Of a stretch of DNA of 64,000 nucleotides, positions 1 through 47,003 are shown piece after piece. The position numbers and the translations under genes are program-made. Position 1 is the stretch's first letter, and every line of letters begins with the position of its first letter. The DNA is from Psammoneis japonica (lineage: Eukaryota), in NCBI GenBank assembly GCA_008632985.1, contig QPGO01000091.1, forward strand, positions 1 through 64,000, written 5' to 3'. The notes under the pieces were generated by a model, which saw only the letters and a list, made by a program, of their open reading frames with translations, did not search any database and had not been told where the DNA came from.

Positions 1-1104
1 CCCCTGGCTGATCATGCACGCACTTGGGGTGCAACAAAAAAAGATGATTGGCAGGACACACAAACGTGTTCTTGAGCGAAACGACAATGCACTGAGGAAG
101 AAGCAGCGTGATGCTGGTGTGACAGCATTCAACTCCGACGAAAAGTGGGAGCAGGTGTGTGCTCCACATGAATGCTTCAAGTGGCATCAAAGAATCTTGA
201 ACTCTGTTCATTGTGTTTGTGATTGCTGTCCCAAGGGAACAATCGCCTGGTCATTTGTGCACCACAGTCAAGTGGTGAACGCCATTTTTCAGTGTGATGG
301 GAGGGACAATTTTGCAAAGGATTCGCGATCGCTTCACTGTGGAATTCGGAAGTTTTTTCAGCATGTTTGCAACTCGGAAGAGACGCAGAATCCCACCAGA
401 GTCATGGAGGTGATTGAGCTCCTTGATCTGGTGGAGCAGAATCTGCGGCACCTGACGCCGGATGTCATTGGGGACGGGCACAATCCGGCAGACTTCTTGA
501 GTGAGAACGAGCTTTCAATGTTGGTGAACAACATGGACCACTCGTGTGAACATGCTGAAGTGCATCTCATGGCAGAGCTGGAACAGAATTGGGAGCTGTT
601 CGATGCTGCACACCTGGAGCAGTGCTGTTTTGGAAGGTGCTGTCTCTAGAGAATTGACGGCATGCACTTAGAACTGGCACCAGAGTGTCTGTGTTGTCCT
701 GCCATTGCATCAAATTGGCACTTTGTTCCGTGGTCGGGCCAAAAGGAGCAATTCAATGGCAAACTCTAGAAGGTTTTGGTGGTGGCACGAAATGGCACGT
801 GAACAAAAACATGCAAAAGCAGCACCGCGTGGCCCAAAAAGAACAACACAGTGTTTCCTCGTGGACAATTGTCGCTTGCTAGAGGAAGCATCATGGCAAA
901 GCAAGAGTGCTGCACTGTGCCGCACACTCTGGCCAGTGACACACAAAATTGGCCACTTTCAGTTTCACGCGTGGAAGCACGGCAAAAGTTTTTCTGCTTC
1001 GGGCAGTGCATTTCAATCTGATCTGCTTCCGACATGCGCACACAAGCAACAGTGTCAAAACCTCATCACCAGCATTGTTTTGCACACAAGTGCGAGCCAT
1101 TTCT

Positions 1105-1180
1105 CATTTCATTCAGCTCCTGGCCACAAATTGTTTGTGGCCATTTCATTCAGCTCCTGGCCACAAATTGTTTGTGGCCA
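1105..1180 (+). repeat. 2 x 37-bp tandem repeat, each unit with a hairpin TGGCCACAAA-ttg-TTTGTGGCCA
   Basis: Unit catttcattcagctcctggccacaaattgtttgtggc read twice. Confidence 0.9.
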
Positions 1181-2026
1181 ATTTTCCAAGCTGCTGGCTG
1201 GAGTGCCGGTGCACTCATTTGTCTTTCCTCATCATTGACCAAAAAGCATCAACGCTGACGCGATCTCTCTCACAATTGTGCATCATCAGACTGGCTCCTC
1301 TTGGACATGTGATCAAAGGTTTTCCTGCTTCAGTTCTCTCAGAAGAATCATTCTCCATGTCATCAACAAGCATCGGAAACACAATGTTCAAAAGCAGGGT
1401 CGTTGCTCATCTGCACACTCCCCTGGGCAATGCAGCTCCCATGGGTGTCAATGTCCACATTTCCACCAATGTTTGTGTCTGACAATTCCTTGCAGAGGCA
1501 AAATCATTCATTCCTGCCTCTGCATCTCTGCTCCATCCTCAATCTGTCCATCCTCTGCCGCATCGTGCACACCTCTGGCGATGTTTTTTGCATCTCTCAA
1601 CGGAGCTCCCAATTCTGATGCTGCGCCAATGCTTTCTGACCAAGGCTGTTGTTTTCCCAAATTCCATGACACTCACTTTCCATTTCTCTGAGTCACCTCC
1701 ATTGTTTGGAGCAGCCAGGGCTGGCTCGCCTTGCATGTCACTCACTGCAAGATTGACCAAATTTGCTCCAACAACAAGGGTGGCACTGATGACAGCCAAT
1801 GCGTTTCTTTCCTTTTGCACAATCCACCATGCAACAAGGAGAAAGCTGGTGAAAAATTTCCAGGAGTGCAGCAACAGATTGAAAATGCTTGCCAGCGGTG
1901 TTCCTCAAATGCCGTTTTTTGCTTCTGCTGGTTGCCCCCTGCAAAACAAGGAGCAATGAAAATTTTGATTTGTTCATCATGTTTTAGCGCACATGTTCAA
2001 TGCATCATCCATGAACCAACCATGGT

Positions 2027-2359
2027 TCAGGATGGATTCAGAACTCTGTCACTCTTGTTCTCATTGTCTTGTTTGTGTGACTCGCTCCTTGTGTGACCAT
2101 CAGGATCATCAGGCAAGGCACTCAAGACGAGCTTGAAATGCAATGAGTTGTTTCTTGCACCAGCAACCAATTGCAACAGTTCCATGTCTTGAGAGTGTGC
2201 AAGTCTCTGCTCAAGGTGTTTGTGGATGCTCGCGCATGAGAACAGAAACTCCACTGTCTCTGCCAATTTAATAGCAGCCCTCAAAGAAACAAAAAAAAAA
2301 TGTGCTTTTGTGTCATTCAGCCATCTTCCCTCCTCATGCTCTAAGGGACTCAACTGCAA
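2027..2359 (-). pseudogene. Possible Ulp1/C48 peptidase N-terminal fragment
   Basis: GRWLNDTKAHFF resembles the WLNDxxINFY motif; catalytic H-D-C not confidently found. Confidence 0.3.
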
Positions 2360-3633
2360 ACATTCTGATCACAGATCTGACAAGAACCCTTCCTCTGCTG
2401 GCAGATCACAACCCTTTTTACACAACAGCAAAATGGGGCTGCAACACTCAAGTTCAATGGACACACAACAAGAAGCAAAGTGCAGCAGCATCTTTCCTTC
2501 AATGTTGTGCGACCAAAAACATGTGGCTTTGTCATCATCATAAAAAAGCTTTTGGTTGCTGCCTTTTGTGCCTGTGTTTCAAACAATTTTGTTGATGTTT
2601 CGTTGCTGTCCCTGTCATCATCACTGCGCTTGCTGCGAAGCTGGCTGCAGTGGCTGGCTCCACCAATTTGATCAGACCTGAACCATCCAACAAAGAATGC
2701 ACCCATGCTTTGTCTTGAAGTCCAAACAAATGTGATGGACTGCCAAGGTCAGTGTTGGAATGTTCAGACCAAAGAAGTGTGTGCTGCATTGCAAGTTTCG
2801 TGAAACAATGCCACACAAAAAGGAGACGAGAGAGCATGGCATGCTCTTTGTTTTTCTGTAGAAATGAGATCTTCCTCCATGTTCCAAGTTTTCCTTGATC
2901 CTTTTTTGGCATGTCATCCAGGAGGGTGTCTCTGACCTTCGGTTAAAAAACAATCCAGGACCCTCGCTTTCTTGCAATGACAGGAGGCACCGGGGTGAGG
3001 CATTTGAGAAAGCACGTTCGTTTGTGCAGAGCATTTTTGAACCAGGCCTGTGGGGAGCATTGACCATTGTCTGTTCGTGTGTCGTTGCAGGTCGGTGCTG
3101 CACGGTGTGAATGCAGGGCCCTGCTGCACTTCGAAGTACGTGCAGTTGGCAATGGTGTTGTGCCGGTGCATGCTCGTGTGCCGTGCAGTGTGTGATGTTG
3201 TGTGGGCGGTGTGTGCGTGGGTTGTGTCGGTGGATGGTCAGACGGTTGTGACGTTGTGACCGTTGTCAACTGCAGATGGCGCCGAGCATGGTGACGTGGA
3301 TCGCCATTGTGCCAGATGTTTCATGTTGAGTTTGGGGCAGTGCCGCAGAACATTTTTGCTCGTGATTGATCATTGTGTGATGCACATGGTTGCATGTTGA
3401 ATGCAGATGCATTTCTGAAAAGCTGTCACGTTGGAGCCTGTTGCATCAAGCAAACCGGAGTCTGGATCTGGAAGGCAGTGTGACGTGTTTGCGTGTGGAA
3501 CAGCATGATTGAGGGCATGCAGATCCTGCTGGGTTTTCGTGGAACATCGACACAGTTTGTTGTTGTTGGCGGCAGACAGAGAATCTTCTGCATTGGGTGC
3601 ATTGTCATCATCGTAACCATGTCCAGTTGCGCA

Positions 3634-4060
3634 ATGGCTCGCGTCAAGCAAACCGCATGCAAAAATGCCACAGGTGTCGTCGGTCGCAAGAGGTTGCGCG
3701 GCAAAGCGGCAAAGGTTGATTCCAAGGCTGCCGGAAGGAAGAAACGTTGTCGCTTCCGCCCCGGAGTCGTCGCGTTGCGTGAGATCCGGAAGCATCAGAA
3801 GTCGACGGAGTTGTTGATCCAGAAGGCACCGTTTCAGCGGCTTGTTTGTCAAGTGGCTGGTGAAGTGACGAGTGAATTGGGAATGCAGGGGGTGAGATTC
3901 CAGTCGACGGCCATCTTGGCATTGCAGGAGGCTTTGGAAGCGCATCTGATTGGATTGCTTCATGACAGCAATCTTTGCGCTGTCCATGCGGGGCGTGTGA
4001 CCATCATGCCGAAGGATCTGATGTTGGCTTGACGCATTCATGGCAAACATTGCCAGGCAG
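3634..4060 (+). pseudogene. H3: Divergent histone H3-like gene, decayed (TGA at 4030 where canonical H3 has Arg)
   Basis: MARVKQTA.K...[32 protein letters not shown]...[17 protein letters not shown]...[26 protein letters not shown] aligns along the H3 histone fold. Confidence 0.93.
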
Positions 4061-4391
4061 AAGAGAGAGGTTGGTGGCCTCTGGTTGTTGGGAAGCGAGG
4101 AGGGACTTCTTGCGTGGTTGAGATGCAGGGATGTTGTTGCATGTTCGGATGCATTGCACAGTGTTTAAGTTGGCGGTGTGCCAGATTAGAGTGTGTGTTT
4201 GTCATTTGTTGTGTGTGTTTTACGGTGTTGCAGTTCCAGCAGTTCTGGCATTAAAAAGTTGCATGGATCGTTGCCAAGCAATGTGCAGCATTGTGCAGTT
4301 ATGATGAATGGAGAAATGGATGTGCGGAGAGGTGCAGGGTGGGCCGCGGGCCCGGCAAGAGTCCTTTCTGCGCAATGTCCAGAGTGAGTTG

Positions 4392-5230
4392 TCAATCATC
4401 GCAGGCTTCGAGGGTGTCTAGGACGCCCTGCTTCACCGGACTTGCACCATTGGAGGCTTTCTGTTTGCCATCCTTGTCGTCTTCGACTGCATGGCCAAAC
4501 TCGTGAAGGGCGGTGTTGACTTTGTTTGGGCCACAGTGCAGTTCCATGGTTTCTTGATCGGCGCAAATGTCATCTTGGGTGCTGTCCGGGAAGCTGCATT
4601 GCATGACATCCATCGTGTTGGCAAGGGTGAGGTGGTTTCCAAGGTGAGCGTCGCCTGGCCCATTGACAGGAGTGAGGTCGGACCCGACGTCGCAGGGATT
4701 GTTCCACTTGAAATCTCTCTTGACAACTTCGTTCAGGACGTCGCAGAGGCGCATCACCCATTTCCTGCATGGTTCTGGCATGTTCAACTTGGGGTCTTTC
4801 AGGACCCGGACCATGAGGGGCCAGGGCGTTTCGCACACCTGGCTTGGATCGGATTTGGATTTGCTCTCTGCCGACCACACACAGATCGGGTTGCAGGTGC
4901 TGACGAGATTTTTTACGAAGTGAATGCCTGCAATCGACAAAATCTTGGTGGTCTTCAAGGCATCCCACCATGGCTTGGCGAAAGGTGGCATCGTGGTGGA
5001 ACAGTTGCAACTGATGAGCCTTGCGATGATTTCTCCTGATCGAGTGCCGAAATGGTTGATGTGGTTTCTGCTTCTGGGTTTTTTTTGGTCGGAGATTCTT
5101 TGACATCGGTGGCCACCTTGAAGTTCTGTCTGCGTTTGAGCGGCCTGTGGGTCGGCGTCTCACTCTCGGAAGGTGATTTCGATTTAGCGGCCATTGACTT
5201 GGTGCTTCGCTTCTTCGGATCGTTCGGCAT
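4392..5230 (-). pseudogene. Hypothetical TE-associated ORF, frameshifted near 4980
   Basis: Lys/Ser-rich N-terminus (MPNDPKKRSTKS...) followed in another frame by a globular-looking region; no family recognised. Confidence 0.4.
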
Positions 5231-5309
5231 GGTGATGGTGGACGGGGCAGCATTGGGTGTGACTGTGGAAGCAGTGTTGCTGTGGCTTCTTTCGTTTTGT
5301 GGGAGGAGA

Positions 5310-5965
5310 AATGTGTGATCGAAGAAGGGAGGGTTCGCAAATGGTGAGGAGGAGGCGCAAATGGTTGTGTGGGGTGGTTTGTCCAAAGTGCAGAGGATTT
5401 GGAAAAGAGGCAATTGCGTTGATCGTGGCATGACTGGTTTGCAATGGGTGGTGGTTTGTCCGCAGGAGAGAGATTTCGCAATTTCGACAATGGCTTGATT
5501 GGCTCACAAGGGGTGGTTCATCCGATGGAAGTTGGGTTTGCATGCATGGGGTTTTGCAAGGGGTGGGTTGTCTGATGAATGGAAGGTTCTCAAAGGATGC
5601 AGGGGCAATTGTGGTTTGTTTGAAGAACAAAAAAGGCATGTGTTGCTTCCAAGCACAAATCTTGTGGTGTGTCCGAAGATCGGAGGGTTGGGCAAAAGTC
5701 AGTGAAAGGCACAAATGGGTCACAAGAGGTGGTTTGTCCGAAGAAGGGAGGGTTCGGAAATGAGGAAATTGTGATGACTCTGAAATGACTGTTCAGCAAG
5801 ATGTGGTTTGTCCAAAGAAGGGAGGGTTCGCAATTGAGTCAAAGGCACAACTGGTTTGTCGGGGTGGTTTGTCCGAACAATGATGGGTTTGAAATTGTGC
5901 GAGCAAAGGACAAGTGTCTTGCAAGGGGTGGTTTGTCCAAGGAACTGCAGGTTTTTCGCAAAAGA
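5310..5965 (+). repeat. Array of ~11 degenerate ~33-36 bp repeats (AAGGGGTGGTTTGTCCGAAGAAGGGAGGGTTCGCAA-like) with variable spacers
   Basis: Copies near 5317, 5371, 5450, 5510, 5560, 5610, 5664, 5724, 5798, 5861, 5923. Confidence 0.8.
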
Positions 5966-6389
5966 GTCACGGTCCACAATTGTTTCGCAGGGGGGGCGGT
6001 GTCTCGGCAGACAGCGCACCGGCAATTTTGTGCTGCACCTGCACAAGCACGGCAAATTTGCCGGTAACTGATTGTGTGTTGTCATGGTGCCGTGGGCCTT
6101 TACGGTGGTGCTGCAGGCACGGGCATGGTCGCACCGTTGGCAATTGGACTGGTGGCAATGTGGGTGTGTCGACACATGGGAGTGACAGTCGCAATGGCTG
6201 TCGAGTGGGGCATGCACGTGTGGCGTTGTGTGTGGGTGGGACAAGACGCCTTGCCGGAGGTGCTCAGTTGGAATGCAGGCTGGCATTTCGCTGAGGTTTT
6301 TGCACGCACACTTTAAAGACAGTGCAAAGTAAAACACGCAATGGTGAAAATAAAACGCAATTGTCACTGTGATTGAAGCGAAAATGTGT

Positions 6390-9300
6390 GCCCAGCTGAA
6401 TTGGATTTGCCAATCACCCTTGTGCGTTCCGTCGGGAGGTGCGGTGCGAACGAGTGAGTCAAGCCGTTGCCACTCGCCGTCCACTAAAATTTTGTGGTGG
6501 ATTTTTTTCTTGGACAGAACTCGGCACATGTTGGACGCCGCTTGCATTTGGTTTGCAACGAACACAAGGAACTCCCACTTGCAATCACTGCCTCTTGCCC
6601 GACCACAGCCGCACTGTTCGACATGTGATTTTTCCACGTGTGTCTGCTTGAGTTCGCGTGGCTCCGACATGACATCATCGAACTGGGCGCAGATCGTGAG
6701 TTCATTGCCATTGTCATCGTAGCAGGACGTCCTGCCGCACGTAAGAAACCAGCATCCAGGACCGCACGAAAGGTTCTCAGAGACAAATGCCTCCAGTGCA
6801 TGAGCAGGATTTGCCAGTCCGAACAGGGAGAAGAGCCGGATGAGGTCCATTGCCGTGAGGTGGCCCAATCCTTTCAATGTGCGACTTTGTACGATGGTTC
6901 GATGAACCTTGTCAGCTGTTTTGGGCACTGATCTGGTTCCCGAATGCAAGGTCCGTAGCAGCTCCTCTGCGCAATTTCCCATGGCCTCGATGACAGGTTT
7001 GTCTGTGCAAGATTGGACCGCCGGTGGTTGCAACGCGTGGTGGCGGGGGTGGGCACATCTTGGACAGCATCTGTCCCCCTTGCGGCTTGTTGGTTGTGTC
7101 AGTGAGAGTGGCTCGCCAAAGGACAGGCAGTGCAATTCCGCCGCACACAACATGCACAAATTGCGTTCGACATGGATGGCCGTGAAGAAGGCACCGGGTT
7201 GTCCATTGAAGCGGTTCTCCATGAAATTGTGCAGGACGGTGAGGATCAGCCACTGCCCCGGACATTCGCGTGCAACGAAAAGGCACAAAAACACCAAGTC
7301 CCTGGCAACCACCACTGTGGTGATGCATTCCGTGGTGTCGAGCCATCGGAGGAAGCGCAGGATGACGTCGACCGTGCTGGAGCACTTCAGCATTTTAGCA
7401 ATGCGCTCCAAAAGGAAGCACGTGTGTGCCATCATTCAGCTGTCGTGCTCTGCAAATGTCTGTCTGTTGGCGCGCCACTTGCTCAGCCGTTCCATCGTCG
7501 CTTGGGTTGGTCCTTTGTCATCGCAATCAAACAGGTTGACGTCCAACCAAGTTTCGTCCGTGAGGGCGGCGAGGAAGTCCGTGCAGACGCCGCTGGCCGC
7601 AATGGATCTTTCCAAGCTCATTGCTCTGGAGCAGACGACTTGTTTGTTGCAGAACATTGTGCCGAGGTTGATGATTCGGGATCGTGTGCCTGCGTTGAGG
7701 AGGGTCTTCTGTTGTGCCTTGCTGAAATGATTGGACATTTCCACTTTCAGATTGAGTCCCGTGGAATGACAGCACTTGTCCGTGGAAGAATCCCCGGCAT
7801 CAAGGTGCAACCCCGTTAAGTCCGTGACGTGGAATTGCGTGGCGTGGTGTTTCATGCCGGTGATGTCTTCCGCATTCATCTTCTGGCGGAGATGTTTCAG
7901 CATGAACTCTCGGTGTGGGCAGTGCAGAAAATGTTGTGACTCGTCACCGTGGAAGATCGCCGACACGACAAAATCGCGTGCCATGGACGACAGTTCTGCC
8001 ATCTCTCTCAAAAATTCCTTGCTGAGATGCTCTGTTTTTCTGCCGACACCGGGAAACATCACACCTTCATGCTTGCACATGACTTGTGCTTGCTGGTTGC
8101 TTGTCCCGACGTTCAGTGACATCAAATTCCGTTCGCAGTCCTTTTTGGCCGACTTGCAAAATTCGTCAAGGTGCAGGCGGATGATGCGGAACAGTTTGGC
8201 ACTGATGGGTTTCAGCAAATCGTGATGATTTGTTGCTGCAGGTTGGAGTGGATCGTTGGACGGAAAATGGTTCTTGTCATTGCGCAGTGGGATCACTTCC
8301 TGATTGCACTCCTCTTCTAGCTCGGGGATTTTCGCAATGGGTCCCACACCGTGGTGCGTGATGTTGAGAAGTTTGCTGAGCGTTAAATTCAAGGGAGTGC
8401 ATTGGACAGCGCAGATCTTGTCGACGTGTTTTTTTTCGGAGGAACTTCCAAGCGAGGCAGCCTCATTTGAAGTGAAGCATGGAAGTTGCTTTTTGCAACT
8501 TGGGAGCAAAATGGAAGAGACACCAGTCGCACATGTCGTCCATGGTGCATCGCGTTTCGTCCAGGGCGGTTTGTCGGAGTTCCATCATGAAATCCCACCA
8601 AGTCTGGTTTTCCCGGCAAGCTTCGAAGCGACGTTTGTTGCGCTGCGATTTCTTGGATTGTCGTTCGAGTTTCCATTTCTTGTGATCCAACTCATCTTGT
8701 AATTTCTTCGGAAGCCACAAATCGTCTGAACAGTTTGACAGATCGTCGTCGCAATCCATGACATCACAATCTTCTTCTCAGGAACTGTCATTGTCTTCAC
8801 TGTCCTTTGGATCCGGCGGCAGTGTGAAGTTGTAGACGTGCTGTTTGTCTGCGTTTGGTCGTGATTGCCTTTCATTGTGGCAGACGAGGCATCGATGCTT
8901 CTTGTCCGTAAGATCCTGACGAGTCGTGCATGTTGGACACGTCCATTTGCGTGTGACAGGAAGTTTCGAAGTTTCCTTGGGGTGCGTCGCTTTGTTTGGA
9001 ACAGTCTTGGTGATGTCAATGCCTTGCTTTTTTAACGAAGCAATCGCAAGTTTTTTCTTGCGGCATTTTGTCTTCTTGCGTTGGTGTCCTTTGTTGACAC
9101 AACATTTGCGAGTTGTGTGTCAGTGCTTCTCTTTGGGAGGCAGCAAGGATGGGTCAAACTTGGGGACTGGAGGACCGATGCCGTCCACGGAAGGCTTCAA
9201 ATGCCATCCGTTCGTGTGCAAGGCCAGAGTCATTGGCATGGATGGAATGGGCAACAACCTGTGGATCGGAGGACTCGTGCCGTCCATGGAGGGTTTGAAG

Positions 9301-9700
9301 TGCCACTCGTTTGTGTGCGAGGCCGGTGTCATTGGCACGGGCGGAATGTGCAACATGCTCTTCGGGAATGGTTGCATCGTCGCACTCCGAGTGAACTGCG
9401 AAAGGTGAGGCAACGGCGGCCATTTTGGCGCAAGGGGACATGGTCGAGGTGGGGTTGGCGTTAAATTGTTGAACTCTCCAGCTTTCATGTGGTGCCCATG
9501 TGACGTGTTTGCTCCAACTGCACTGGCATGGCATGTTTGAAATTGGTTTTGTGTGACAGGTGGCATCGGAGTTGCACTGTGTGGTTCTGTCTGGTTTGGA
9601 TTCGGAGGGTGCTTGGGGTTTGGCGAGAGTTTGTGCTGTTGATGTTTGGGCATGGCAGGGTCGATGCAGTCAAGGCAACGGTGTGTGGCACCTCAACAGT
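6390..9700 (-). pseudogene. Large uncharacterised protein, copy A: HxD (TET/JBP-like) motif plus HhH-like helical region
   Basis: Consecutive ORFs 8463-8759, 7436-8509 and 5720-7435; TGLHLDAGD (~7790-7815), LKGLGHLTAMDLIRLFSLFGL (~6816-6877), VEQCGC (~6605-6622); low-complexity N-terminus. Confidence 0.5.
9145..9350 (-). repeat. 2 x 99-bp (33-aa) coding tandem repeat
   Basis: IPPVPMTPASHTNEWHFKPSMDGTSPPIHRLLP / IPSMPMTLALHTNGWHLKPSVDGIGPPVPKFDP. Confidence 0.8.
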
Positions 9701-9958
9701 TCCAAGTCATTGGTGGCAGTGGCGGAGGGTGGTGGAGGACACAAGAGGGGCAACGGATGCACGTGCATGTGGCATCTCATGGCGTGGCATGTTGTTGCGG
9801 CGGGAATGTTCTGCATGACATTGTGAGAGATGATGTCATCACAATGTTCACATGTTAATTGTCCCATGTGCACTGCAAAAGTGGAAATGCTTCACACAAA
9901 GGAGGTTGCAAGAAAAGTTCAGCATTTGCCCTGACAATGAATTTGCTGACCAAATTCA

Positions 9959-10003
9959 TTTTTGATGACACGTGAAGGGTGCATTTAAGGAAAAGACAAA
10001 AAC
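9959..10003 (+). repeat. Left arm of inverted repeat (partner 13069-13113)
   Basis: tttttgatgacacgtgaagggtgcatttaaggaaaagacaaaaac vs reverse complement of partner tttttgatgatgcgagaagggtgcatttaaggaagagacaaaaac. Confidence 0.9.
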
Positions 10004-10537
10004 CGAATCACAGTTGTTGGTGTCGATTGTTTGGAAACTTGCTTTGTGTGCGTGCAGTTTTCACTGCAGTTGCAGCAATTGTTGGGGGCAACAAGACCAT
10101 CATCAGGGCTTCTCTCTGTGTCTTGCTGCAGAAAATTGCACTTCATGGCAGCTGCTGCAGCAACCACTGTACAGCACCGGTGCTGCAGTGCTGTGGTGCG
10201 GTGTCGCATGCATCCGCTGCAGTTTGCAGCACAGACCAGCAAGTGACAAGTGCCACCGAGACAACTGTTTTTGTTGGCGTCTTCGTGACAAGTCATTGCT
10301 GTCTGCATTGCAGTGTGGTGGTGGCACTGTGTTATGACAGGTGGTTTGCAGTGCAGTGCAACAATGGTTTGTGCGAGTCGCAAAGGGACCGCACAAGAAC
10401 TTCAAGAACCACATCCAGTTGGCAAGAATTGCCAACAAGACAATGCTCCGGCAAAGGTCATGAGGGCTTGTGAGGCATCTCGCAAATGCTTTCACAGACA
10501 CAGCAGGGGCCTGCCTTGATTGCGTTGCAAGAAAGGA

Positions 10538-11218
10538 ATGGCGTTGAAGCGATCAAAAAGGAAAGCATCTGAGCAAGCGCAACATGCCACAAGTGGTGCA
10601 GATGGCACAGAATGTGATTTGTTCAAAGACTTTCGAGTTGATCGCACGCATCCGGAAAAGGTAAAAAAACATGGAAGTCATTGTCAATGGACCTCAATGT
10701 TGCCTGTGGAGGTTGATGGTGTGTCACAGAAGGTCACCGTGAAACGACATGACAAGAACGCCACGCACAAGTTGTCCATTCTGTCCAAGAAGGGTGTCAT
10801 GGAAGATCACATCTTGGCAAAGTCCCTTCCTGTGAAGGACGTCATTGATGGTGACGCCCCTCACATGGTGGTTGCATTGCATCATTTTGAAAAGGGCAGC
10901 ACTGTGGGAGTGCATGTCGGAAAAGAACGGAGCGTGAACGCTTCTGAGTTGGAAAAAGCCTCGGTGTGTGTCCAAAAATGGCACCGGCACTTTTTGAAAC
11001 AGAAGGTGGTCAGAGATGTTGTGATGGGAATCGATGCAGCAGGAGGCATTGCATCTGGACGTCCCTTGCACCTTGGAGTGCATCTTGTCAACGACCCTGC
11101 TTTGTCTGGCGGGAAAGCGAGTGAAGCGAACTGTGAAGCAAAGACGGATGGCACCGTCGTCACTGCGAAAAGAGTCCATCCGGGACAAGAGTTGCTTTTC
11201 CATTGTGACTGGCAGTGA
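10538..11218 (+). pseudogene. SET-domain protein, decayed
   Basis: HLVNDP...ANCE...VVTAKRVHPGQELLFHCDW matches the SET NH..NC / GEELxxxY C-terminal motifs, with Y->C. Confidence 0.75.
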
Positions 11219-11219
11219 A

Positions 11220-11907
11220 CATGTTTTAAATTAAAGTGTGGTTGCAACGTCACACAGTGTGGCAATTGGCACTCCCGCCCACAAAAAGGACAACTTGGAG
11301 GTCCTTGAGAACTTCGCATCCAATGGCAGAGACAGCTTCGGTGGAAAGCATGAAGGCACACATGAGGCACAGCCACTTTGCAGTTGTCGTTGTCTTCCTT
11401 TTCGAAAGGCATTCTGCACATGCAGCATTCTTTGCCAGCGGCTCCCATGGTTGTCGGAAGGTTGCTGAAGCACTGATCTTCACAGACAATGCGTTTGATG
11501 CAATGAAGTTTGCTTGGATGAGTCTTCTTGCAAGGATCGCATCGGTTGATGGGGGGGATTCTCCGGAGACGCCTTGGTTCCGAAGTGTCAATTGGAGTGT
11601 GTTTGTTGCATGGAACCCAAGCATCTTCCTTGCAATCAACCCACCTTGTTTTTGTCCTCACGTCGTCTTTCCCGAATGCCTTGGGTCCTTGCAGTGCTTC
11701 AGCTTCATGTTTGATTTTTGCATTTCCGTGTTCTGCCAGGATCATTTTTCCGATGGGAGGCCGTTGAGACTTGAACGAAGCATGTTTGGTGGCAGCCCAA
11801 CAGACACGCTGCAGATGCGCTCCAGCCCCAGGTGGGAGCTCGTAGTGCTGATGTGTGACAACAATGACTTTTGTCATCCGTCGCATGTTTCGCACGCAGA
11901 TTTCCAC
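11220..11907 (-). pseudogene. RING-H2 finger protein, decayed
   Basis: CCMCRMPF...CLHAFHRSCLCHW...SCPFCG (C3H2C3 spacing) at ~11265-11435. Confidence 0.8.
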
Positions 11908-11998
11908 GTGTGATGTTTAAAAAAAATTGTCCAGACTCGCTGTTTTTGCGAAGCCCCAGACGTTTTACATGACAAATTTGCAGAAACAACAACGCGCT

Positions 11999-12031
11999 AG
12001 TTGCATTCTTCAATGTCTGAAGAATGCAACT
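11999..12031. other. Perfect 14-bp stem hairpin
   Basis: AGTTGCATTCTTCA-atgtc-TGAAGAATGCAACT. Confidence 0.9.
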
Positions 12032-13068
12032 GGCCAAGTAAAAAATGATGCACTTCAATCATGTGCGAGTTTGTGCGTTCGCAAAATTGCCTCATTTTCT
12101 GTTGGCGATCATTGACATTTTAATTGCCGCACAATTTCACTGCGGAGCTCGCACGCAGAAGTCTGCGGGCCCAATGTCACACGGATTCCCACCCACGTCT
12201 GGAACGCGTCTGCATCTCTGCCTTTTGTTTCTTTTGTTGTTCTTTTTTTTGAGCCGTTCCTGCTGCATGATGTCAGAACACGGAGTGGAACTTGACTCCC
12301 CATCAGTTGTTGTTTGTTTCACGACGTTGTGACGATGCTGTCATGTTGATGTGTCACAAGAAAGTGCAGCAGTCAGTGAGAGGTTTTAGGGTCGGTGGCG
12401 CTGTCATCCGTTCTCGTGCTTCCTGTCAGTGTGCTGCCATTGTGGAGTTGTGTCTGTCAAATGAGTTGGGGTGTCGTGAACGGGTGCACATCCATTTTGT
12501 GCGGTTCATCAGTCTTTGTCTGGGAGTCATCCGGCGGCAAAATGATGCTGGCAAGGAGTGCGCGAACAGGCGCTGTGACTGCATCACTGGAGGACAACCG
12601 CAGCCGTTGTCCAGTTGGCTTCATGTGAGTTTTACATCCGAGTGTAGTGCAATCAAACTTAGATTGTGTGCCATTGTCACCACGAGGAGAGCCCGCTCTC
12701 TGCCAGTGCCACAGCGTGTGAGAGAGTGGGCGCTGTGACTGTGTGTGCAGCATCACTGGAGCGCAACAATTGCAGCCGTTACACTGTTGGCTTCACATTG
12801 GTTTTAGCCATCCAGAGGGCTGACTCAAATTAGTTTGTGCTGTGTCGTCAACTGGCCAGCACTGCTTTGCTGCACTTGCAGTGCTGCATGTTTCTGATGT
12901 GAACGCTTCCAACTTGGCCATTGTTTTGCATGCTTCATTTGTTCAAAGTGCACCGTTGTGATCTTCAATGCCGTCATAGGATCGTTGTTGCGCAAGCCAC
13001 AATGTAGCACATGTCGGCTCAGTGCTGCAGTGCAATTTACAATGTTCAACACGAACAATTCTTGTGCT

Positions 13069-13113
13069 GTTTTTGTCTCTTCCTTAAATGCACCCTTCTC
13101 GCATCATCAAAAA
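13069..13113 (-). repeat. Right arm of inverted repeat (partner 9959-10003)
   Basis: Direct reverse-complement comparison. Confidence 0.9.
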
Positions 13114-13337
13114 CGATTTTGATTGGCCGGTTCATCTGTTAAAATGTCCATCGGGACGGCACTGTGCCAAGACAATCGAATCAACAAAGTTTGTCCGTAG
13201 CACGCATGTCTAAATGTCTCGAGTTGTGCTTTGACAACTTGGCGAATTTGCCAAATTATGGAGGGTGTCGTTCAGTGCTGTGTTGTGGTTGTGTGTCGAA
13301 CTGCACGACATTGTTTCACGCATCGTCCACAATGTTG

Positions 13338-16300
13338 TCAATTGCTCTGTTCTGTCAATTGTCTGCAATGACGGCAAGCTTTGTTCATGTCCCAACTGTC
13401 CTCTTTCCAGTTGTGGTCTTTCGATTGACTGAAGCCAGCAAAAAACGCTTCTGCAGATGCGTCAGGCTTCAGATCTGACACACGCTGAATGGATTCCCAT
13501 TTTTGCATTTCAAAGCAACCTGTCAAAAGCAATTGCCTGTTTTCTGGCAATTTAACTCTGCTGCTTCCCACATGCAGTTTGGCACAAGTGCAATTGGCGA
13601 CTTGTCGATGTGACATTGCGAGTGTCTCATGGTCCAAAGTCTGTCCCTTGGCTTTGTTCGCGGTCACGGCGAATCCCATTTCTAAAGGAAATCAAGGCGC
13701 AACGATGCATCGCGATGGAAGACATCCTGGTCCACCTGGAATCGGAGCGGGTTTCGGTTCCTTGGTTCGCATTGGAGAAACCGGCATCACCACCTCCCTT
13801 TTTACGATGGATTTGTCTCTCAGCAATCGCAATGTTTCACTGTCAAAATCTTCGGGATCCAGTTCGATGTTTGCCATGACGGGTGGCTCGGACAGTGTGA
13901 CGACGGTGCCAGCCGCACCATTCTGCTCAGTGTAAAAGTCGACAAGGTCCACATCAAGTGGATTGCTGATCGTCGAAGAATGGCACTTGAACTTTCTCCC
14001 GTTTGCCATCTTGAGATGTGCGCCAATCTTGCCGGCAATGCACCCGGGACCACCAGCAACAAAGTGCTCATGGAATGCCATGTCCTCCATGGCCTGTGCT
14101 TCACAAGCCTGGGCAGGTTTCTGTTCCCATTTCATTGGTTTGGCAGCCAACCATCGAAAGACAATGGCACCTGTGTGCCGTGCAAATCGAACCGCTGCCT
14201 TGTGGTTCAACGTGTGACGTTCATGATTGGCAACGACAATTGTCGGAGCCGTCAACCATGGACTGTTTGGCTTTGCAAAATCATCTTCCGAGAGCAATGG
14301 AATCGATTTGCAGCAATCAGGATCAATCCGTTCATGATGATGGAATTTAGACAACAGCTCCGTGTGATGTGGATCCTCACAGTGCAGTTGTTGTTCGAAT
14401 TCGATCCATTTGACCGATGCGAATGTCTCACACCCAACGCGATGCGGAGAACCTTCTTGCAATCGCGCCTTCTGCTCTTTGGTCCACTTCTTCACTCTTT
14501 TGTTGCTGCGAACCTTGCCCGCTCTCTTCCATTTGTTCCCGTTGCCCGTGAAGAGGAGTGTTCACCCGGATGTTTCCAACATTTCTGCATCTCAAACCCA
14601 ATTCCGTCTTTCCCTTTCCATTTCTTGATGGTGTTTGTAAGCCGCCACTTCCATTGAGGCACTGGTTGACAAAGGTCCAGCCACAATCGGTCCATTTTGG
14701 TCCAGATCCCCAGCAAATGAGACAGGAATGCCTCCAAAAGGCATGTCGATGTTTCCAGTGAATTGCTGCAAAGTCCAGCTCAATTGCGCAAGATGCCACA
14801 GAGCCTGATTTCCGACTTCGTCTACAAAGAGCAATGTTGGATCCTTCAACAATGACTTTAATTTGTTCAGTTGATTTGCGGTGAGATCAACAAACTCTTT
14901 CATTCTCATTGCCGTGTTTTGGCCCAGAAAGATCAAACAAGCTGTTGTCGGTCCGCCGATGTCAGTCGCATTCATCCCATTGAAAGCCGTCCAAGGAATG
15001 TTCCTGGATTCAAGAATGGACAGATCAACAGCATTTTTGAGACAAAGGCTTTTGCCTGTGCCTGCCGCGCCGTGCACCAACACCATTGCCGGCACACTGT
15101 TGTTGGGATCTTCAGGCACTTTTGCCCATGCCGAATGAAGGTTGAACACTTCCCAGTGTGCAGGCGCAAACAATTCCTCTCGGCTTTTCATTGTCTTCTT
15201 TGTCGCTTTGTGCTCTGTGTTCCGCTTTCCAGGCATTGTGCCAAGGCCACCTTCATTCGATGGGTGTTTGACGGAAGTGTTTGTGTTGTTGTCTGGCTTG
15301 CAATCTCTTGTGTCTTTGCTCATTTTCTGACACCATTTGATCGAGTTGTCTGCGGTGTCATTGTGAAACACCAGTGGCTTGTTCCGGCTGTTGTGGTGCA
15401 TGGGAACAAGTCGGGCGTTGTGGTTGCCACGCCAAGGGTTCGTGGTGTGACACACAGACACCATGTTGCGTCTGTCTTCCAATGCTTGCAGGATGCTCTG
15501 GTGACTCTTCTCTGACAGCTTGCGATTGACGGTTTCGAACACCATCTCATCAGTTTCGTTTCGCTCTCGGTTTTTTAAAAATTGTTCGATTGCAAAATCC
15601 GTGGACCATCGTTGCTTTTGTTCTTCGGTCCAAAGCATCTGATTGCGTCCACGACACTGAGCCAGCATCCACTCATTTAAAAAGCTCATGTGAAGCCCTT
15701 GCATTCTAGTGTGCATGGCAAAGAGTCTCGTTTTAGACACAACAGACTGGTCGGTTCGCAGTTCTTCTGTCCATTTCGCTGATGCAGCCCAATCATGTTC
15801 ACAATGGTTCACGTGAGACGACTCATGGCATTCCGTTTCTGGATGGCACTCGCACAAATGGAATCGTGCAAACTTGTCAGCTTTTGCTTTCCACTGGCGG
15901 CATTGCATGCTGGTGCGAAGTTCATCACACGGTTCCTTGCCCGGATGGGGGGGGATGTTTTTCTGTCAAGATGACCGTCTTCTGCTTCTTGTCCAGCACT
16001 TGAGCACACTGACTTGCGACAGGAAAACTCGGCGCAAAGGCGAAATTTTCGTCCGTGGTCCTCCCTTCTCCTTGACGGACACAAACACTTTGCACTCATT
16101 GCGGTTCAACATGCGCAGCTCTGTGCCATGATTCCCGTAAAACGCCGCTTTTGGAATCAGATGTTTTGTTTCCAAAGTGTCGCCATTGGGTGGCTTCTCT
16201 TTCAACGTGAACAAACGGACGGTGCCCAGGTTTGCCTGCATCAAATCGTCTTCATTGCACTGATCCGCGTCATCTTCCTTTTTGTCTTCCGCATCTTCTG

Positions 16301-19300
16301 CCGATTCCTTCTTGTCTCCTTCTGTCTCGTCTTCTTCATCACTGTCTTCACACCCGTTGCACAAATTGTCAATGAACATGCTGTCTTCCAAGTCGCGTCT
16401 CTCTCTTTGTTCCAACAGCCGTTCAAACAGTCGTTCCATGCGCTGTTTGCCATCTTCCTCCATTTGGATTAGAGTGCTGTGAGCCCGGTCGCAAGCCGGA
16501 TTGCTGCAAACAAATTTCTCCAAAGCAATGATGCTCGGCAGACCCAGCAAGTCGGCACACATCTGGCAATCGGACAACTCCATTTGCAAGTTCATCTTGT
16601 TCATCACATGTTGGAGGACTTGTTTCACACTGCATCCGGAGGTTCCTGCATCGTCTGCCTTGCTGGCGCACTGCTTGGCGTGACTGATGGCTTCTCGAAA
16701 CAACACCATGCAATGTTGCAAGGGATGCTTGCGTTTGCCCATGCACAGGCATGTGCAGAAGATGGCTCCTTTTGCTTGTCCAGTGCTTCCCAACAACTGA
16801 CAGTTGTCATGAGAGCCGGCGCAGCAGGAGATGACGACATTGAACATGGAAACATTGCCATTGCCCTCCTTTACAAAGTCAAGGAGTTCCAAACAAAATT
16901 CAGTCAGCTTCTCCTCCATCAGTTTGTCGAGAGCCATCCACAAAGATTCACGATTGCGACACGTGTCCGAGACGCCATCTCGCAACGATGCCAGCATTTC
17001 ATCTTTGGACATTTCTCCACCGTTCAACCGATGCTCAATGTCATCCAATTGCACACGCGGTCTTTTTGTCTCCCACGCTGTCACAGAATCTTCCATCTTT
17101 CTTTCCAAAATGTCAATGGTCTCGTGCCGTTCCGGTTCGTTGTTCCATTCCATCTCTTCTGCATCACACAGATTGCAGTCTTCCTTTTCTTCTTTTTGCA
17201 CCACACCTGCTGTTTGACTTTCCTCAGCCCGACTGCCATCGTCTTCTTCTCTTTCAAGCACCTCTTTCTTTGGCACCAAACGCACTGCTCCAGTCTCTTC
17301 TACAAGGCCGGCTGGTTGGGACAAGCGACAACCACTGCTGCCCATTGCACCTTGGTGGCAAGTCAGCATGTGATCGTGCATTTGTTGTTGGCCTCCTTGC
17401 CCAGAAGTTTTTTCTTGCACTCATTCATGCTGCACGTGTCCTTCTGGTTCCATCACTTCTAACGGATTCAATCTTTCTGGCAATGGATTTCGATTCACCC
17501 GTCCAAGACATTCTTTGGAAAACCTGCAATCGTCTCTCTTCTTTTCGACAATCTGCTGCATGCCACAATCGAAAAGCACTGGCCTTTGCAAAGAGGATTG
17601 ATGCATTTGATCCAGTGTCTCTGACAACGCTTTGCAAACTTCCTTCAAATGTGCAAAACGCTGCATTGCATGTGGATCAATCCCACCGTGAAACAACAGG
17701 TGGCAATGCAGAGTTCATTTTTTGTGATCTTCCACAACAGCGATGTGCCCAAGACAATGGCCAAAAATGCCCTTGTTTGTGATTTAAAAATGTCAAGTCT
17801 TTCGACGTGACTCACTCATGTGTCGAGAAAAGAAGTTGTCCAGCGGCATTCCCAAAAGCAATGCACAGACATCGTTGATCAACGACTGACTCTCCGCCAC
17901 AAACACGACGGGGTCTTCAATTCCTTTAGAGGCACGATCCTGTCTGGACAAACCAGGCAAATTGATGACTCCTGCGCCAACTTCCGCAGACGCACATCTC
18001 ATGTTCTCCATGAACTCTTCTCCACTGCGACCGCACCCCGAACTCTCATCAAAGACCACCGGAAACGTCTTGTTGTTGACAGTTCGGAAAGTCATCTGAA
18101 TGGCATGAGGATTCCCACAGTCGTCAAATGACAATGTCATGAAACAAGACAGAAGGCCCATTCTTTTTGACATTTCAAGAGTCATCGATGTCAACTTGCT
18201 GGATTCATTGCAACCATGTGACGTGTCCTTTCCCATGGGTCGAAGATGTCCCAGATGTTTCTGCTGAAAGTCTTTTGCTGCTTTTCCACCTGGATTTGCC
18301 ACCACTTCATCAAGCTTCTTCAATTCGGTTTCGTCTCTGAGCAGGCTTCTGATCATTGCAGCAGACTGTTTGCTGTTTCGGACGTGAGAATTCACTTGAA
18401 AAATTGCTTCGAACCGTTTCTTGCTGTCGAAACAGCAAGCCAACAACCTCCTGTCCAACGAAGGCACTCAAGTGAACTGTCGCAAAAGATGGTTTCGTTC
18501 AATGCAGTTCAGTTTTCCCAGTGCTTTGTCGCACATGCGTCCAAACATAAACACGTTGGGGAACGTGGTCGCCACCACAAAATCACTTGCAGCAAATTCA
18601 TTGATCGGATCACTCTCCCGGCAGGAAGCGATGGCATTGACATGTCATTGCAATCATTGCACGGTTTTATGTCATCCAAAGGAGAGTGGTCTTCCACGGC
18701 ATCATTGTCTTTGTCACTTTCCGACATGACATCCTCCTTTTCACTGTCATGAACGTTTGCAGGGTCAGGCTTGCAATCTGAATCTGCCAAACACTTTCCG
18801 TCCGCATCCTCGCCCTCTTTCCTGCTTGACGATTCCAACTCTGATGCGGAACTTCTGGAATCGTTGTTGCCGCTGCTGCCGACAGACCAATCAGAATCGT
18901 CAGAATGTTCCCCATCGCTTTTAGCACTCACGTTCTCTTCTGCTTTTTGTCCCTTGTGCCGACATGCTGACTGTTTAAAAGATCGAAGACAAGCCGTTCT
19001 CATTGTGATTTTGTCTTGATGAGTTGATCCCGCACTGTCCGCAATGCAGAAAAATCTCATGCTGTCACTGGGTTTTTGTGTCTCCACTTCGTCCCGTTCT
19101 TCTTCATCGGCGTTGTCAGTGTTCAAAATTTCTTCTGATTGTGCTTTTGCAACATCAGAGCTGATGGCATCTTCATCTTGTAAAATGGCTTTGTCCTTCA
19201 CGCGACAAGCTGAATCTTTTATGTGCTGCACAGCGATGCCTGCATTGTGCTGCACTTTGGCACAAGACACGCCAATGGAGCAATTGCCTTTTCCCCACAA

Positions 19301-22006
19301 AATGGCATTTAACGCCGTTGCCCATCCACACAGATTCCAAGCACGTCCAAAAATGTCATTGCGTCCGAAAGCTTCCTTTGCCAGTGTGTCAAATCTGCCT
19401 TCAGGGTCCAAGAAATAGAGCCGTGACACCGACTTCATAAAATTAGGATGAAACATGTCTTTCACACTCAAAATCTCTCGGATCGTTTCTGGAGCATCAT
19501 GGGCAAACAAAATGCAATTGCATTTCAAACAGCTGTGATTGAAATTTACATGGCCACGGCGATTCGAGGAAATCTTGATCGTTGATGCAAACAACCGATT
19601 GCGTGATAAAATGAGCTGTTCATGCAAGTTCAATGGCTCCAAATCCAACCGTCTGAAATCCCCGCGGCTGTCAACAGTTTTGGTTGTTCGGCCTTTTCTT
19701 CTAAACACTCATGGCACGTGGGACACAAGTGAGTGAACTCCTTTCCGGCATCATCTGTGTCTGCCAATTCCAGATGAAGATGGTGCCATTCACCAACAGA
19801 TTCTTGGGACTCGTACATGGAGTGCCCTTTTGTCAAATCAATCGTTTTGAATTTGCCATTTCCATCTGCCAGAATTGCCACATGACCCAACTGTTTCCAC
19901 CATTCCAACTTCTGCATGTCTTCGTCCGCACAAAATCGCAAGGGCCCCAAGATTCCATTCTTCAACCACACCCTGGTGCACTTGATTTTGGGTTCCGCAG
20001 GTCTTTCCAACATCCGAATCCCGCATGCTCCACAAGCAATCATGCACCCGTTCGTGTGTGTGAATGACACAGAAAAAAACGTTGCAGCATGCTTGCCAAT
20101 TCTTCCTCACTCATTCCCTCTTTCGAAATGTCACTCACAATTCTCTCGACATCCACCTCTTTTCCGTCACATTTCTTGTCATGTTCTCCATGACGATCAA
20201 ACTGAAGACAGCCTGAATTTACATGATGCAACAACAACAACCTCAGAACATCTTTGTCGAAATGCTCAAAGAAACCATTTGTCTTCAGGATGTTCTTCCA
20301 TTTCTCGCAATTTTTCCATCAAAAATGCTTCAGACACGTGGTCCGAATCCAAGCCTCGAATCTCCTTTTCGGCTTCATTCAATTCATCCTGTCGTCATTG
20401 CAATGCCTGTGCGGCTTCACGCTGCAATCTCTCCTGATGTTCCTCCTCCGACTCCTTGCTTCGCAGATCTGTTTTGTGCGCCGCCTCCCGTTGCAACCTC
20501 TCCTCACGTTGGTCCTCTGACTCCGTGTTCCGCCGGTTCACTTTCTGCGCCGCCTCTCGTTGCAGCCTTTCCCGATGTTCGACCTCCGACTCTTTTCTCT
20601 GCCGATCCGCTTTGTGTGCCGCCTCCCATCGCAGCCTCTCCTCACGTTTGTCCTCCGACTCTGTGTTCCGCCGGTCCGCTTTCTGTGCCACTTCTCGTTG
20701 CAGCCTCACCCGACGTTGGACCTCCGACTCTTTGTGGAGCTGACCCGCTTTGTGTGCCACCTCCCGTCGCAGCCTCTCCTCACGTTGGTCCTCCGATTCT
20801 GTGTTTCGCCGGTCCGCTTTCTGCGCCGCCTTGCATTGCAGCCTTTTCCAACACTGGACCTCCGACTCTTTGTGGAGTCGATCCGTTTTCTGTGCCGCCT
20901 CCCGTCGCAGCCTCTCCTCACGTTGGTCCTCTGACTCTGTGTTCCTCCGGTCCGCTTTCTGCACCGCCTCTCGTTGCAACCTTTCCCAACGTTGGACCTC
21001 CGACTCTTTGTGGAGCCGATCCGTTTTCTGTGCTGCCTCACGTCGCAGCCTCTCCTCACGTTGGTCCTCCGACTCTGCGTTCCGCCAGTCCGCTTTCTGC
21101 ACCGCCTCTTGTTGCAACCTTTCCCGACGTTGGACCTCCGACTCTTTGTGGAGCCGATCCGTTTTCTGTGCCGCCTCCCATCGCAGCCTCTCCTCACGTT
21201 GGTCCTCCGACTCTGCATTCCGCCGGTCCGCTTTCTGCACCGCCTCTCATTGCAACCTTTCCCGACGTTGGACCTCCGACTCTTTGTGGAGCCAATCCGT
21301 TTTCTGTGCCGCCTCCCATCGCAGCCTCTCCTCACGTTGGTCCTCCAACTCTGCGTTCCGCCGGTCCGCTTTCTGCACTGCCTCTCGTTGCAACCTTTCC
21401 CGACGTTGGACCTCCGACTCTTTGTGGAGCTGATCCACTTTCTGTGCCGCCTTCCGTTGCAGCCTCTCGTGACGTTGGTCCTCCGACTCTGTGTTCCACC
21501 GATCCGTTTTCTGCGCCGCCTCTCATTGCAACCTTTCCCGACGTTGGACCTCCAACTCTTTGTGGAGCCAATCCACTTTCTGTGCCGCCTCCCGTTGCAG
21601 CCTCTCGCGACGTTGGTCCTCCGACTCTGCGTTCCGCCGATCCGTTTTCTGCGCCACCTCTCGTTGCAACCTTTCCCGCCGTTGGACCTCCGACTCTTTG
21701 TGGAGTCGATCCACTTTCTGTGCCGCCTCCCGTTGCAGCCTCTCGCGACGTTGGTCCTCCGACTCTGCGTTCCGCCGATCCGTTTTCTGCGCCGCCTCTC
21801 ATTGCAACCTTTCCCGCATTGGACCTCCGACTCTTTGCTCTGCAGATCTGATTTCCGTGCCGCCTCCAGTTGCAGCCTCTCTCGACATTGGTCTTCCGAT
21901 TCCTTTTTGCGGCATTCTCTGCGTTCGTCAGCTCCTTTCTTTTTTTCCACTGTTTTCTTGCTGCCAGTCTCTTAGACTCCTTCGCCTTCTCTCTGCCCAG
22001 ACCCAT
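13338..22006 (-). mobile_element. Helitron RepHel gene, decayed (STPR repeats, DUF6570-like region, HUH Rep, PIF1 helicase)
   Basis: Rep: GLLSCFMTLSFDD, GIFGHCLGHIAVVEDHKK*TLHCHLL (17682-17771), HDHMLTC..CRL, AIFCTCLCMGK. PIF1: HGAAGTGKS (~15050-15075), LLFVDEVG, PFGGIPVSFAGDLDQ, MGFAVTANKAKGQTLD, KLHVGSSRV. Several stops and frameshifts. Confidence 0.9.
20400..21950 (-). repeat. ~21-22 tandem 69-bp units encoding 23-aa STPR-like repeats, with 138-bp higher-order alternation
   Basis: QREERLRREAAQKTDRLHKESEV alternating with QRRERLQREAVQKADRRNAESED. Confidence 0.88.
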
Positions 22007-22153
22007 GTTTCACAATTCAAACTGCCTGAAGCAATTCTTGCAACGTTCATGCACAATGGAGCCATTGTGCGCTGGCCTTCAAGTCATTTTATCTCGCACG
22101 GTCACGCCCACCACAAACAATCAGGCACACAAGTCACAACATCGTCAAACACG

Positions 22154-22232
22154 ACAGACACCAGATGGCCATTGCTTTTTATGACTCAGACACAACAGAC
22201 ACCAGATGGCCGTTACATTCTATGACTCAGAC
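22154..22232 (+). repeat. 2 x 41-bp tandem repeat upstream of RepHel
   Basis: acagacaccagatggcc...atgactcagac repeated at 22154 and 22195. Confidence 0.85.
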
Positions 22233-22702
22233 CGTTTTTGATGCACAGGGCCGGCTGGCGTTGCTCACTGTACGAGCAGCGACAGGGAAAAGCATGCACA
22301 GCACGGCAGATGCCACATCTGGGGCTGCATCGAGGTGCACGGACACTCTTTTTTTCCCAATTTACCACCAAAATGGCGCATCACACAAAAGCACTTGTTG
22401 TTCAACATGTTTTTTACAATGTGCGACTGTCTCGTAGAATTCACAACTGATTGTGTCTGTTCAAACTTGAGTGAAGTTTTTAACATGCCACGCCAGCAAT
22501 TCCAATTTTAAAGCACTTTCGAGCTCTCCCGAAAAAAACCGTTCCACACACCCGTCGTAAGGAATTTGTCAATTTTTTAGGATGTCCCCACGACCTCTCA
22601 TGTCCTCAATGATCATTCTACGAATCCGAAGAATTCATCTGTGCCAAACAACCCACCCCGTTCTAAAATCTGAGGGACACACTTTCAAATTCAGACGGAC
22701 AA

Positions 22703-22751
22703 CCCGACTGCCCGACTGCCCGACCCCCGACTGCCCGACTGCCAGACCGAC
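22703..22751 (+). repeat. (CCCGACTG)n short tandem repeat
   Basis: cccgactgcccgactgcccgacccccgactgcccgactgcc. Confidence 0.85.
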
Positions 22752-23016
22752 ACGAAAAAGTCTGCAATCACCAACCACTGAGTGGTCAATGAAATTTGAG
22801 TGGTTGGCAGTTGGCAGGCGCGCATGATGACGTTGCCACGAACACAATGGAGTCGTCGCTCGTCGCTCGTTGCCTCTTGCCATTGCATGCTGCGGGGATG
22901 TTGTGTGTTTCGCAATGACTGCACTTGCCGGCTGCCGGCGTCAATGCATGACCATGCTGTCTTGATGACTGCAACAAGTCTTGAGCGACGAAACCTGTGA
23001 GAAATCTCAAAAAGCA

Positions 23017-25526: not shown

Positions 25527-25701
25527 TAATTGACCAAAGCATTTTATCGCAACCTTGCGCTGGTGTTCTCCGTCTCGCCGCCATTGAGTAGCCGTTTTGT
25601 TTTCTTGTCGACTCTTGATGAGCCTTACACGTTCAATGAACTCATGACATTTCAGACTTGCTGTTAGAACAATCTAAATTCATGGCCAAATAGTTTTTCT
25701 T

Positions 25702-43212: not shown

Positions 43213-43232
43213 AAATTTGTCAGCAGCAACGC

Positions 43233-46951: not shown

Positions 46952-47003
<52 letters not shown>

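Follow-up and report, generated by a model that had tools for sequence, protein, structure and literature searches.

Two described systems come closest to the locus reported here. In Dothideomycete fungi, a hAT transposon captured histone H3, and RIP later inactivated the resulting copies (Dhillon et al. 2019, PMC6710886). There the carrier transposon is defined, tens to hundreds of copies are reported, the gene that was captured began as the housekeeping H3 of the host, and the mutation process creates TpA. In Bigelowiella natans, integrated viruses and TE-like genes are subject to a hypermutation that affects only TpA (A-to-G/T-to-C); the preprint describes the process as seen experimentally and gives a TpA observed/expected ratio (o/e) of 0.45 for a viral region (Mettrop et al., bioRxiv 10.64898/2026.01.13.699255). 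A third group for comparison is formed by the H3s encoded on giant-virus contigs (L001-L053), which are full-length H3s on non-host DNA and in which K27 and S28 are often replaced.

The locus described here lies near the start of a 64,000-nucleotide stretch of the diatom Psammoneis japonica (assembly GCA_008632985.1, contig QPGO01000091.1, positions 1 to 64,000, forward strand; hereafter the window). Like the fungal copies as reported, it is an H3 coding sequence in a repeat compartment that was apparently killed by repeat-directed point mutation; as in B. natans, TpA was turned into TpG and CpA on probable foreign or repeat DNA. It differs from the fungal case as described in that no carrier can be delimited, the copy number looks low, the H3 was far from canonical before decay (at most 66% identity), and the mutation signature removes TpA instead of creating it. 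Compared with the B. natans report, the host is a diatom, a stramenopile, and not a chlorarachniophyte, the TpA depletion is far deeper (o/e 0.01-0.19), and the process is known here as a sequence footprint alone. In contrast to this copy, the giant-virus H3s are intact, have an 11-residue loop-1 stretch in 45 of 48 cases, and are at most 64% identical to it.

In our reading, the locus holds an H3 variant that had diverged strongly, was once functional, and now survives as a dead, hypermutated copy in a repeat or foreign-DNA compartment; we assign this reading a probability of about 0.6. The original gene would have encoded an H3 of 139 residues with its fold under selection; its tail would have lost T3, S10, K14, K27, and S28, its fold K79, and its loop 1 would have been longer by five residues. 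Either through duplication or as part of it, this gene would have come to lie in DNA treated by the host as repeat or foreign, possibly a mobile element, although the bounds of such an element could not be drawn. Repeat-directed mutation of TpA to CpA/TpG, together with ordinary CpG decay, would then have killed the copy, in a process that resembles the one reported from experiments with B. natans. The features of the H3 locus are as follows.

3634..4029, + strand: H3-like frame (translation, Pfam, PDB matches, and an alignment with other H3s, A1).
3703..3726, + strand: tail segment KAAKVDSK, against KAARKSAP elsewhere (R26K, K27V, S28D, from the alignments); none of the three changes can be reached by a CpG or TpA transition.
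3847..3894, + strand: residues 72-87, where helix alpha-1 ends and loop 1 follows, with 16 residues from RLV to RFQS against 11.
4030..4032, + strand: in-frame TGA in place of Arg128; a single CpG transition separates it from CGA.
4033..4056, + strand: rest of the old frame, RIHGKHC, against RIRGER plus one residue (alignment); R131H, E133K, and R134H are each one YpR transition.

Translated, the open reading frame (ORF) begins with a canonical MAR and spans 132 codons up to the premature stop. It matched the Pfam Histone family (PF00125) with an E-value of 4.9e-30 and 104.7 bits (cut-off 26.4). Among PDB sequences, the top matches were H3.1, H3.2, and H3.3 (E about 4e-41), and the best 60 were all H3 types. 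The N-terminus can be aligned with other H3s from residue 1 in alignment A1; the frame belongs to the H3 histones by its fold, which scores above the curated cut-off, and by its ARTKQTARKS-like N-terminus of H3 type.

The change of CGA to TGA at R128 has put a stop into the frame and left the locus a pseudogene. The TGA replaces this residue of LARRIRGER, and the next seven codons still align with the C-terminus of H3. Behind the last aligned codon, where other H3s have their stop, stands CAG, possibly a former TAG. The first-pass annotation had found the start of the H3 but let the feature run to 4060, past the in-frame TGA. The 139 residues that can be read from the locus (132 before and seven behind the stop) include no tyrosine, and TA is absent from its 426 bases, although the TpA level of the genic blocks predicts about 12 (Poisson P about 8e-6). 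With no tyrosine, no TpA, and a TGA behind which the homology continues, the copy must be regarded as dead. It has a single stop and no frameshift. The frame is not open through helix alpha-3, and invariant DNA-contact and core residues have been replaced; because of the stop and these losses, this copy itself could not act as a decoy.

We used a script to ask, for each of the 50 columns in which the copy differs from the consensus of the 12 other H3s in alignment A1, whether the consensus residue is recovered by reversing a transition at TG or CA. Twelve of the 50 differences were single-step transitions at CpG or TpA; the other 38 and the insert in loop 1 were not. The CpG steps include R8C, R63Q, R72C, R128stop, R131H, E133K, and R134H, and the TpA steps include Y54H and Y99H. 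The cysteine at residue 8, which the first reading of the sequence had guessed to be a decayed arginine, is encoded by TGC, one CpG transition from an Arg codon. The residues of H3 are nearly invariant, and this makes the copy a ruler: changes of Tyr to His and of Arg to Cys, Gln, His, or stop reveal the direction of mutation without an outgroup. The directions read in this way are TpA to CpA/TpG and CpG to TpG/CpA; since invariant Tyr codons now read as His, the change at TpA went from T to C. The CpG o/e within the ORF is 1.02, so CpG decay there has been modest.

The TpA-free mosaic to which the copy belongs is more striking than the H3 locus itself. The following features are needed for its description.

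1..24500, no strand: TpA-free, TpG/CpA-rich block that has the H3 copy well inside it, with 0-9 TA per 500 bases against 14-36 at 24501-28000; its left end is cut by the window.
5720..8584, - strand: pseudogene neighbouring the H3 copy; its frame of 954 codons is interrupted by a single in-frame stop, at 7436-7438 (phmmer hits P0241-P0244).
14592..19708, - strand: Helitron-like remnant of a PIF1-family helicase gene, the sole TE-type gene of the block; a weak DUF6570 match lies upstream of it on this strand.
61700-63223: DDE_Tnp_4 gene in a TpA-free block.

The TpA-poor blocks extend over approximately 1-24500, 28000-44500, 47000-48000, and 61000-63500 and contain 0-9 TA per 500 bases; their TpA o/e is mostly 0.01-0.19, and their TpG and CpA o/e lie between 1.2 and 2.1. 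The intervening genic blocks contain 9-36 TA per 500 bases with a TpA o/e of 0.5-0.6, against which the H3 ORF has a value of 0.00, and one kind of block gives way to the other abruptly. The helicase remnant and the DDE_Tnp_4 gene, both in TpA-free blocks, are the only TE-type genes in the window. A 592-residue ORF in the gene-rich half had its best named matches in Nitzschia, Cylindrotheca, and Mayamaea (54-57% identity), which gives the genome a raphid-pennate-diatom-like character. TAA and TAG cannot occur in the TpA-free blocks, and the long ORFs found there in all six frames are therefore artefacts. Between the window and further X1 contigs, 38 differences were listed, and 32 of these were transitions at YpR (CG, TG/CA, TA); X1 is the one DNA run in which the sequence was seen (share 0.65), next to two more runs from that sample, and no RNA run was listed. 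The composition of the blocks fits a repeat- or foreign-DNA-directed hypermutation of TpA to CpA/TpG. A search of the literature yielded no report of TpA loss in diatom repeats.

To place the variant, the copy was aligned using MAFFT with 111 other H3s (48 viral and 63 cellular or metagenomic rows). The tail retains K4, K9, K18, and K23, and K36 is likewise kept; T3 is replaced by V, S10 by N, K14 by V, R26 by K, K27 by V, S28 by D, and K79 by T. The HMMER alignment also sets V opposite K27, and both programs place a gap of one residue after the motif, so the ARKS motif is lost under either gapping. In the region of loop 1, eight of the nine residues at 73-81 are changed, and an in-frame insert of five residues, GMQGV (15 bases, 3880-3894), follows. 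The stretch between RLV and RFQS has 11 residues in 46 of the 63 cellular or metagenomic rows and in 45 of the 48 viral rows. The 16 residues of the copy are also reached in 3 of the 63, which have canonical tails and unrelated loop sequences, and 14 more of the 63 have 12-15; the length of the loop alone is thus not unique. The cluster entries of the longer-loop H3s carried neither names nor taxa. The description of the tail in the first-pass annotation (T3V, S10N, K14V, and K27V/S28D, with K4, K9, K18, and K23 kept) agrees with the MAFFT alignment and with alignment A1, and the motif is lost irrespective of the gap. Its count of 16 against 11 residues was borne out, with the qualification that the greater length recurs in those three other H3s.

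A protein search against 5.8 billion protein clusters scored the 8000 candidates that shared most words with the copy, of which the best 120 were considered. These had BLASTP identities of 41-67% to the H3 copy, and the 12 H3s aligned in A1 were at most 66% identical to it; no close relative was found among the matches listed. None of six proteins of the window had an exact match in the protein collection. A degenerate DNA pattern for ten residues of the loop retrieved one chance match from metagenome contigs, in a high-GC bacterial ORF, and a search of viral contigs with the single H3 protein gave nine pattern matches, none of them related. We calculated a maximum-likelihood tree of 100 rows, comprising the copy, the 63 hits that were 130-145 residues long, and 36 viral loci out of 53, with partial matches and duplicates omitted. 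The end branch of the copy measured 0.79 against a median of 0.077, and the copy formed no supported clade with either viral or cellular rows. With no close relative among the listed clusters, no supported clade, and a chance match only in the metagenomes, the variant is, as judged from its sequence, an orphan.

The first-pass annotation had described the H3 as associated with a transposable element (TE) and had suggested an anti-silencing or decoy histone. The corresponding explanation is that a Helitron-like or unnamed element carried an H3 lacking K27 and the phosphorylation sites, which blunted H3K27me3-type silencing as a decoy, and that one inactivated copy is seen here. We consider this unlikely, with evidence on both sides. 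The copy shares its TpA-free block with the PIF1 helicase remnant, the gene is whole from start to stop, and K27, S28, and K79 were removed while K4, K9, and K36 were kept; the capture of H3 by a TE is known from fungi (PMC6710886). However, the helicase match (14592-15965, - strand, E 3.9e-10, above the cut-off) starts 10.5 kb from the H3 copy, the DUF6570 match is below the cut-off (E 0.0026), and the helicase remnant had no match to Helitron_like_N. No TE domain or transposase was found near the copy in 1-9.7 kb, and the 175 ORFs of at least 40 residues in 1-14 kb contained no TE domain, H4, or other histone. Self-comparison and repeat searches of the window revealed no terminal, direct, inverted, or long repeats flanking the H3 copy, and with them no TIRs or LTRs; target-site duplications or TE boundaries around it were not found either. 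The copy has the repeat-type mutation signature of a TE-captured H3 and lacks the defined termini and the transposase. A histone also works in trans, which makes it hard to see how it would protect its own element.

The evidence for further copies is of the same mixed kind. The summed depth of X1 contigs at 80% likeness was 137 over 3336-4002, against about 48-61 for the near-identical contigs of the window (approximately 2-2.7x), a quantity that according to the tool's own warning is a poor measure of copy number. Contigs diverged by about 10% cover parts of the neighbouring gene in the same run. Depth and diverged contigs are hints of one to three further copies, the summed depth being no copy number in itself. 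A tblastn search of the window detected no second H3 beyond 3634-4029, and neither the listed cluster matches nor the loop pattern in metagenome contigs produced a relative. The literature searched contained no report of a TE-encoded H3 in diatoms. What stands of the proposed TE association is the position of the copy in a hypermutated repeat compartment; a transposase, termini, and a high copy number did not emerge.

The copy might instead be a relic of an integrated giant virus, or of a similar viral element, with an H3 of its own, an explanation to which we give little credence. Stand-alone H3 genes are common on giant-virus contigs of IMG/VR (53 loci), and in the MAFFT alignment a residue other than K stands at K27 in 13 of the 48 viral rows, compared with 6 of the 63 cellular ones; V at T3 occurs in 2 of the 48. 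The genes next to the copy are orphans, the block contains a glycosyltransferase and a RING ORF, and TpA-specific hypermutation has been described on integrated viral DNA in B. natans (bioRxiv 10.64898/2026.01.13.699255). Against a viral source, none of the 31 ORFs of at least 200 residues in the window has a Pfam domain of a capsid protein, a packaging ATPase, or a polymerase. The identity of the copy to the 53 viral H3s (47-64%) is not above that to cellular H3s (59-66%), and the tree gave no supported grouping with the 36 viral rows.

In a separate observation on the viral proteins, three of the IMG/VR loci (L005, L011, and L038) have Met at K27 when inspected by eye (ARM for ARK); the MAFFT column counts Met in 2 of 48 rows. 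Met at this position is the residue of the PRC2-inhibiting K27M histone.

A bolder interpretation would be that diatoms, or mobile or foreign DNA within them, once had a dedicated H3 that could not be marked at K27, K14, and K79 or phosphorylated at T3, S10, and S28, that kept K4, K9, and K36 and had a longer loop 1, and that served to evade or dilute the Polycomb-type silencing of repeats; in answer, the host would have killed this copy through TpA-directed hypermutation. We regard this scenario as very doubtful. If it were true, intact members of the family should exist elsewhere in the same genome or in relatives. An anti-PRC2 or decoy role of the variant is conjecture, and as a pseudogene the locus says nothing about anti-silencing. 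Should a live copy exist, the function of a variant that retained K4, K9, and K36 without K27, S28, and K79 and whose loop 1 was longer would be of interest. The destruction of H3 copies in repeats by genome-defence mutation is known from fungi (PMC6710886); the present locus would be a first look at such a fate of H3 in a diatom, with a different mutation signature.

Our preferred reading, a working variant that was later killed, holds that the divergence is older than the decay. A drifting pseudogene is expected to change uniformly along its length. Differences beyond hypermutation were found at 17 of 40 tail positions and at 18 of 87 fold positions (Fisher p 0.018), a contrast that compares one sequence to the consensus of 12 other H3s. 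Within the fold, eight of these differences fall in residues 73-81 beside the insert, and the remaining ten are spread over the other 78 positions. Seventeen differences of the copy are residues that other working H3s carry in the same column. Because the 38 differences and the in-frame insert lie beyond YpR transitions, they are older than the decay, as the first-pass annotation had claimed for the unusual changes. The changes crowd in the tail and loop 1 and spare the fold, which suggests that a working variant existed before the damage; we infer that selection kept the fold while tail and loop 1 diverged, before inactivation.

The same numbers bear on another alternative, that this is an ordinary H3 pseudogene in which every oddity arose through neutral decay and no special variant ever existed. 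The copy is certainly a pseudogene within a mutating block, and its end branch is ten times the median. However, 38 of its 50 differences call for changes other than the dominant YpR transitions, the spread is uneven (17 among 40 tail positions, but 10 among the 78 fold positions beyond residues 73-81), the 15-base insert preserves the frame, and there is a single stop with no frameshift; the 17 residues shared with working H3s in the same columns would also be unexpected. Purely neutral decay is highly improbable on these grounds.

CenH3s are recognised by an N-terminal tail that cannot be aligned with that of H3, a longer loop 1, the loss of the conserved Gln of helix alpha-1, and greater similarity to CENP-A than to H3. 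That the locus is the centromeric H3 of the host, or another single-copy host variant that still works, is almost certainly wrong: the copy does share a loop 1 longer than that of H3 with CenH3/CENP-A, but its tail is H3-like, with an alignment to H3 that starts at residue 1 and shows K4 and K9 unchanged, the motifs PFQRLV and RFQS and the residues Q68 and F84 are retained, the best PDB matches are H3.1, H3.2, and H3.3 with no CENP-A among the best 60 solved sequences, and the premature stop removes the end of helix alpha-3 in a protein that has also lost the invariant R63, R72, Y54, and Y99. The first-pass annotation had named grouping with CenH3 as an outcome that would speak against its proposal; the copy is not a CenH3.

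The pseudogene at 5720-8584 belongs to an unnamed family of about 920 residues that is known from a few metagenome proteins (P0241-P0247). BLASTP aligned it to P0241 across the stop, with 25% identity over 679 residues (E 2e-37). Tyrosine accounts for 3 of its 954 codons, and it has no Pfam domain; P0241 contains a weak RanBP-type zinc ribbon near the N-terminus. The AlphaFold model for the family had a mean pLDDT of 49, which is too poor for a fold search, and P0241 gave no usable match in the ESM Atlas. Searches of the neighbouring ORFs against PDB sequences returned nothing or matches with E above 0.5, and the 382-residue upstream ORF had no match in the 5.8 billion clusters. Rfam and tRNA scans of the window returned nothing.

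Several repeats were seen elsewhere in the window. At about 11870-12210, the summed X1 depth is huge (12,000-59,000 in the bins at 11340-12673, whereas the surroundings have about 100), and joints and loose ends are numerous; this is probably a very high-copy short element, and since it retains several TA it may be a younger insertion. An inverted repeat with 90-base arms (9937-10026 and 13046-13135, 78% complementary, 3 kb apart) encloses this stretch together with a RING-finger-like ORF at 10882-11916 on the - strand (zf-RING_2, E 1.5e-4, below the cut-off); the arms may be the ends of a DNA element. Two direct repeats of about 490 bases (27928-28418 and 43231-43712, 84% alike) bracket the second TpA-free block, of about 15.8 kb, and look like LTRs; the five long ORFs scanned between them (211-766 residues) contain no reverse transcriptase, integrase, or Pfam match. 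At 20445-21899, a 138-base unit is repeated 10.6 times in tandem (89% matching); the array lies within a 544-codon frame of the TpA-free block. Downstream of the H3 copy, at 5304-5963, ten degenerate copies of a 42-base motif are spaced at 50-101 bases.
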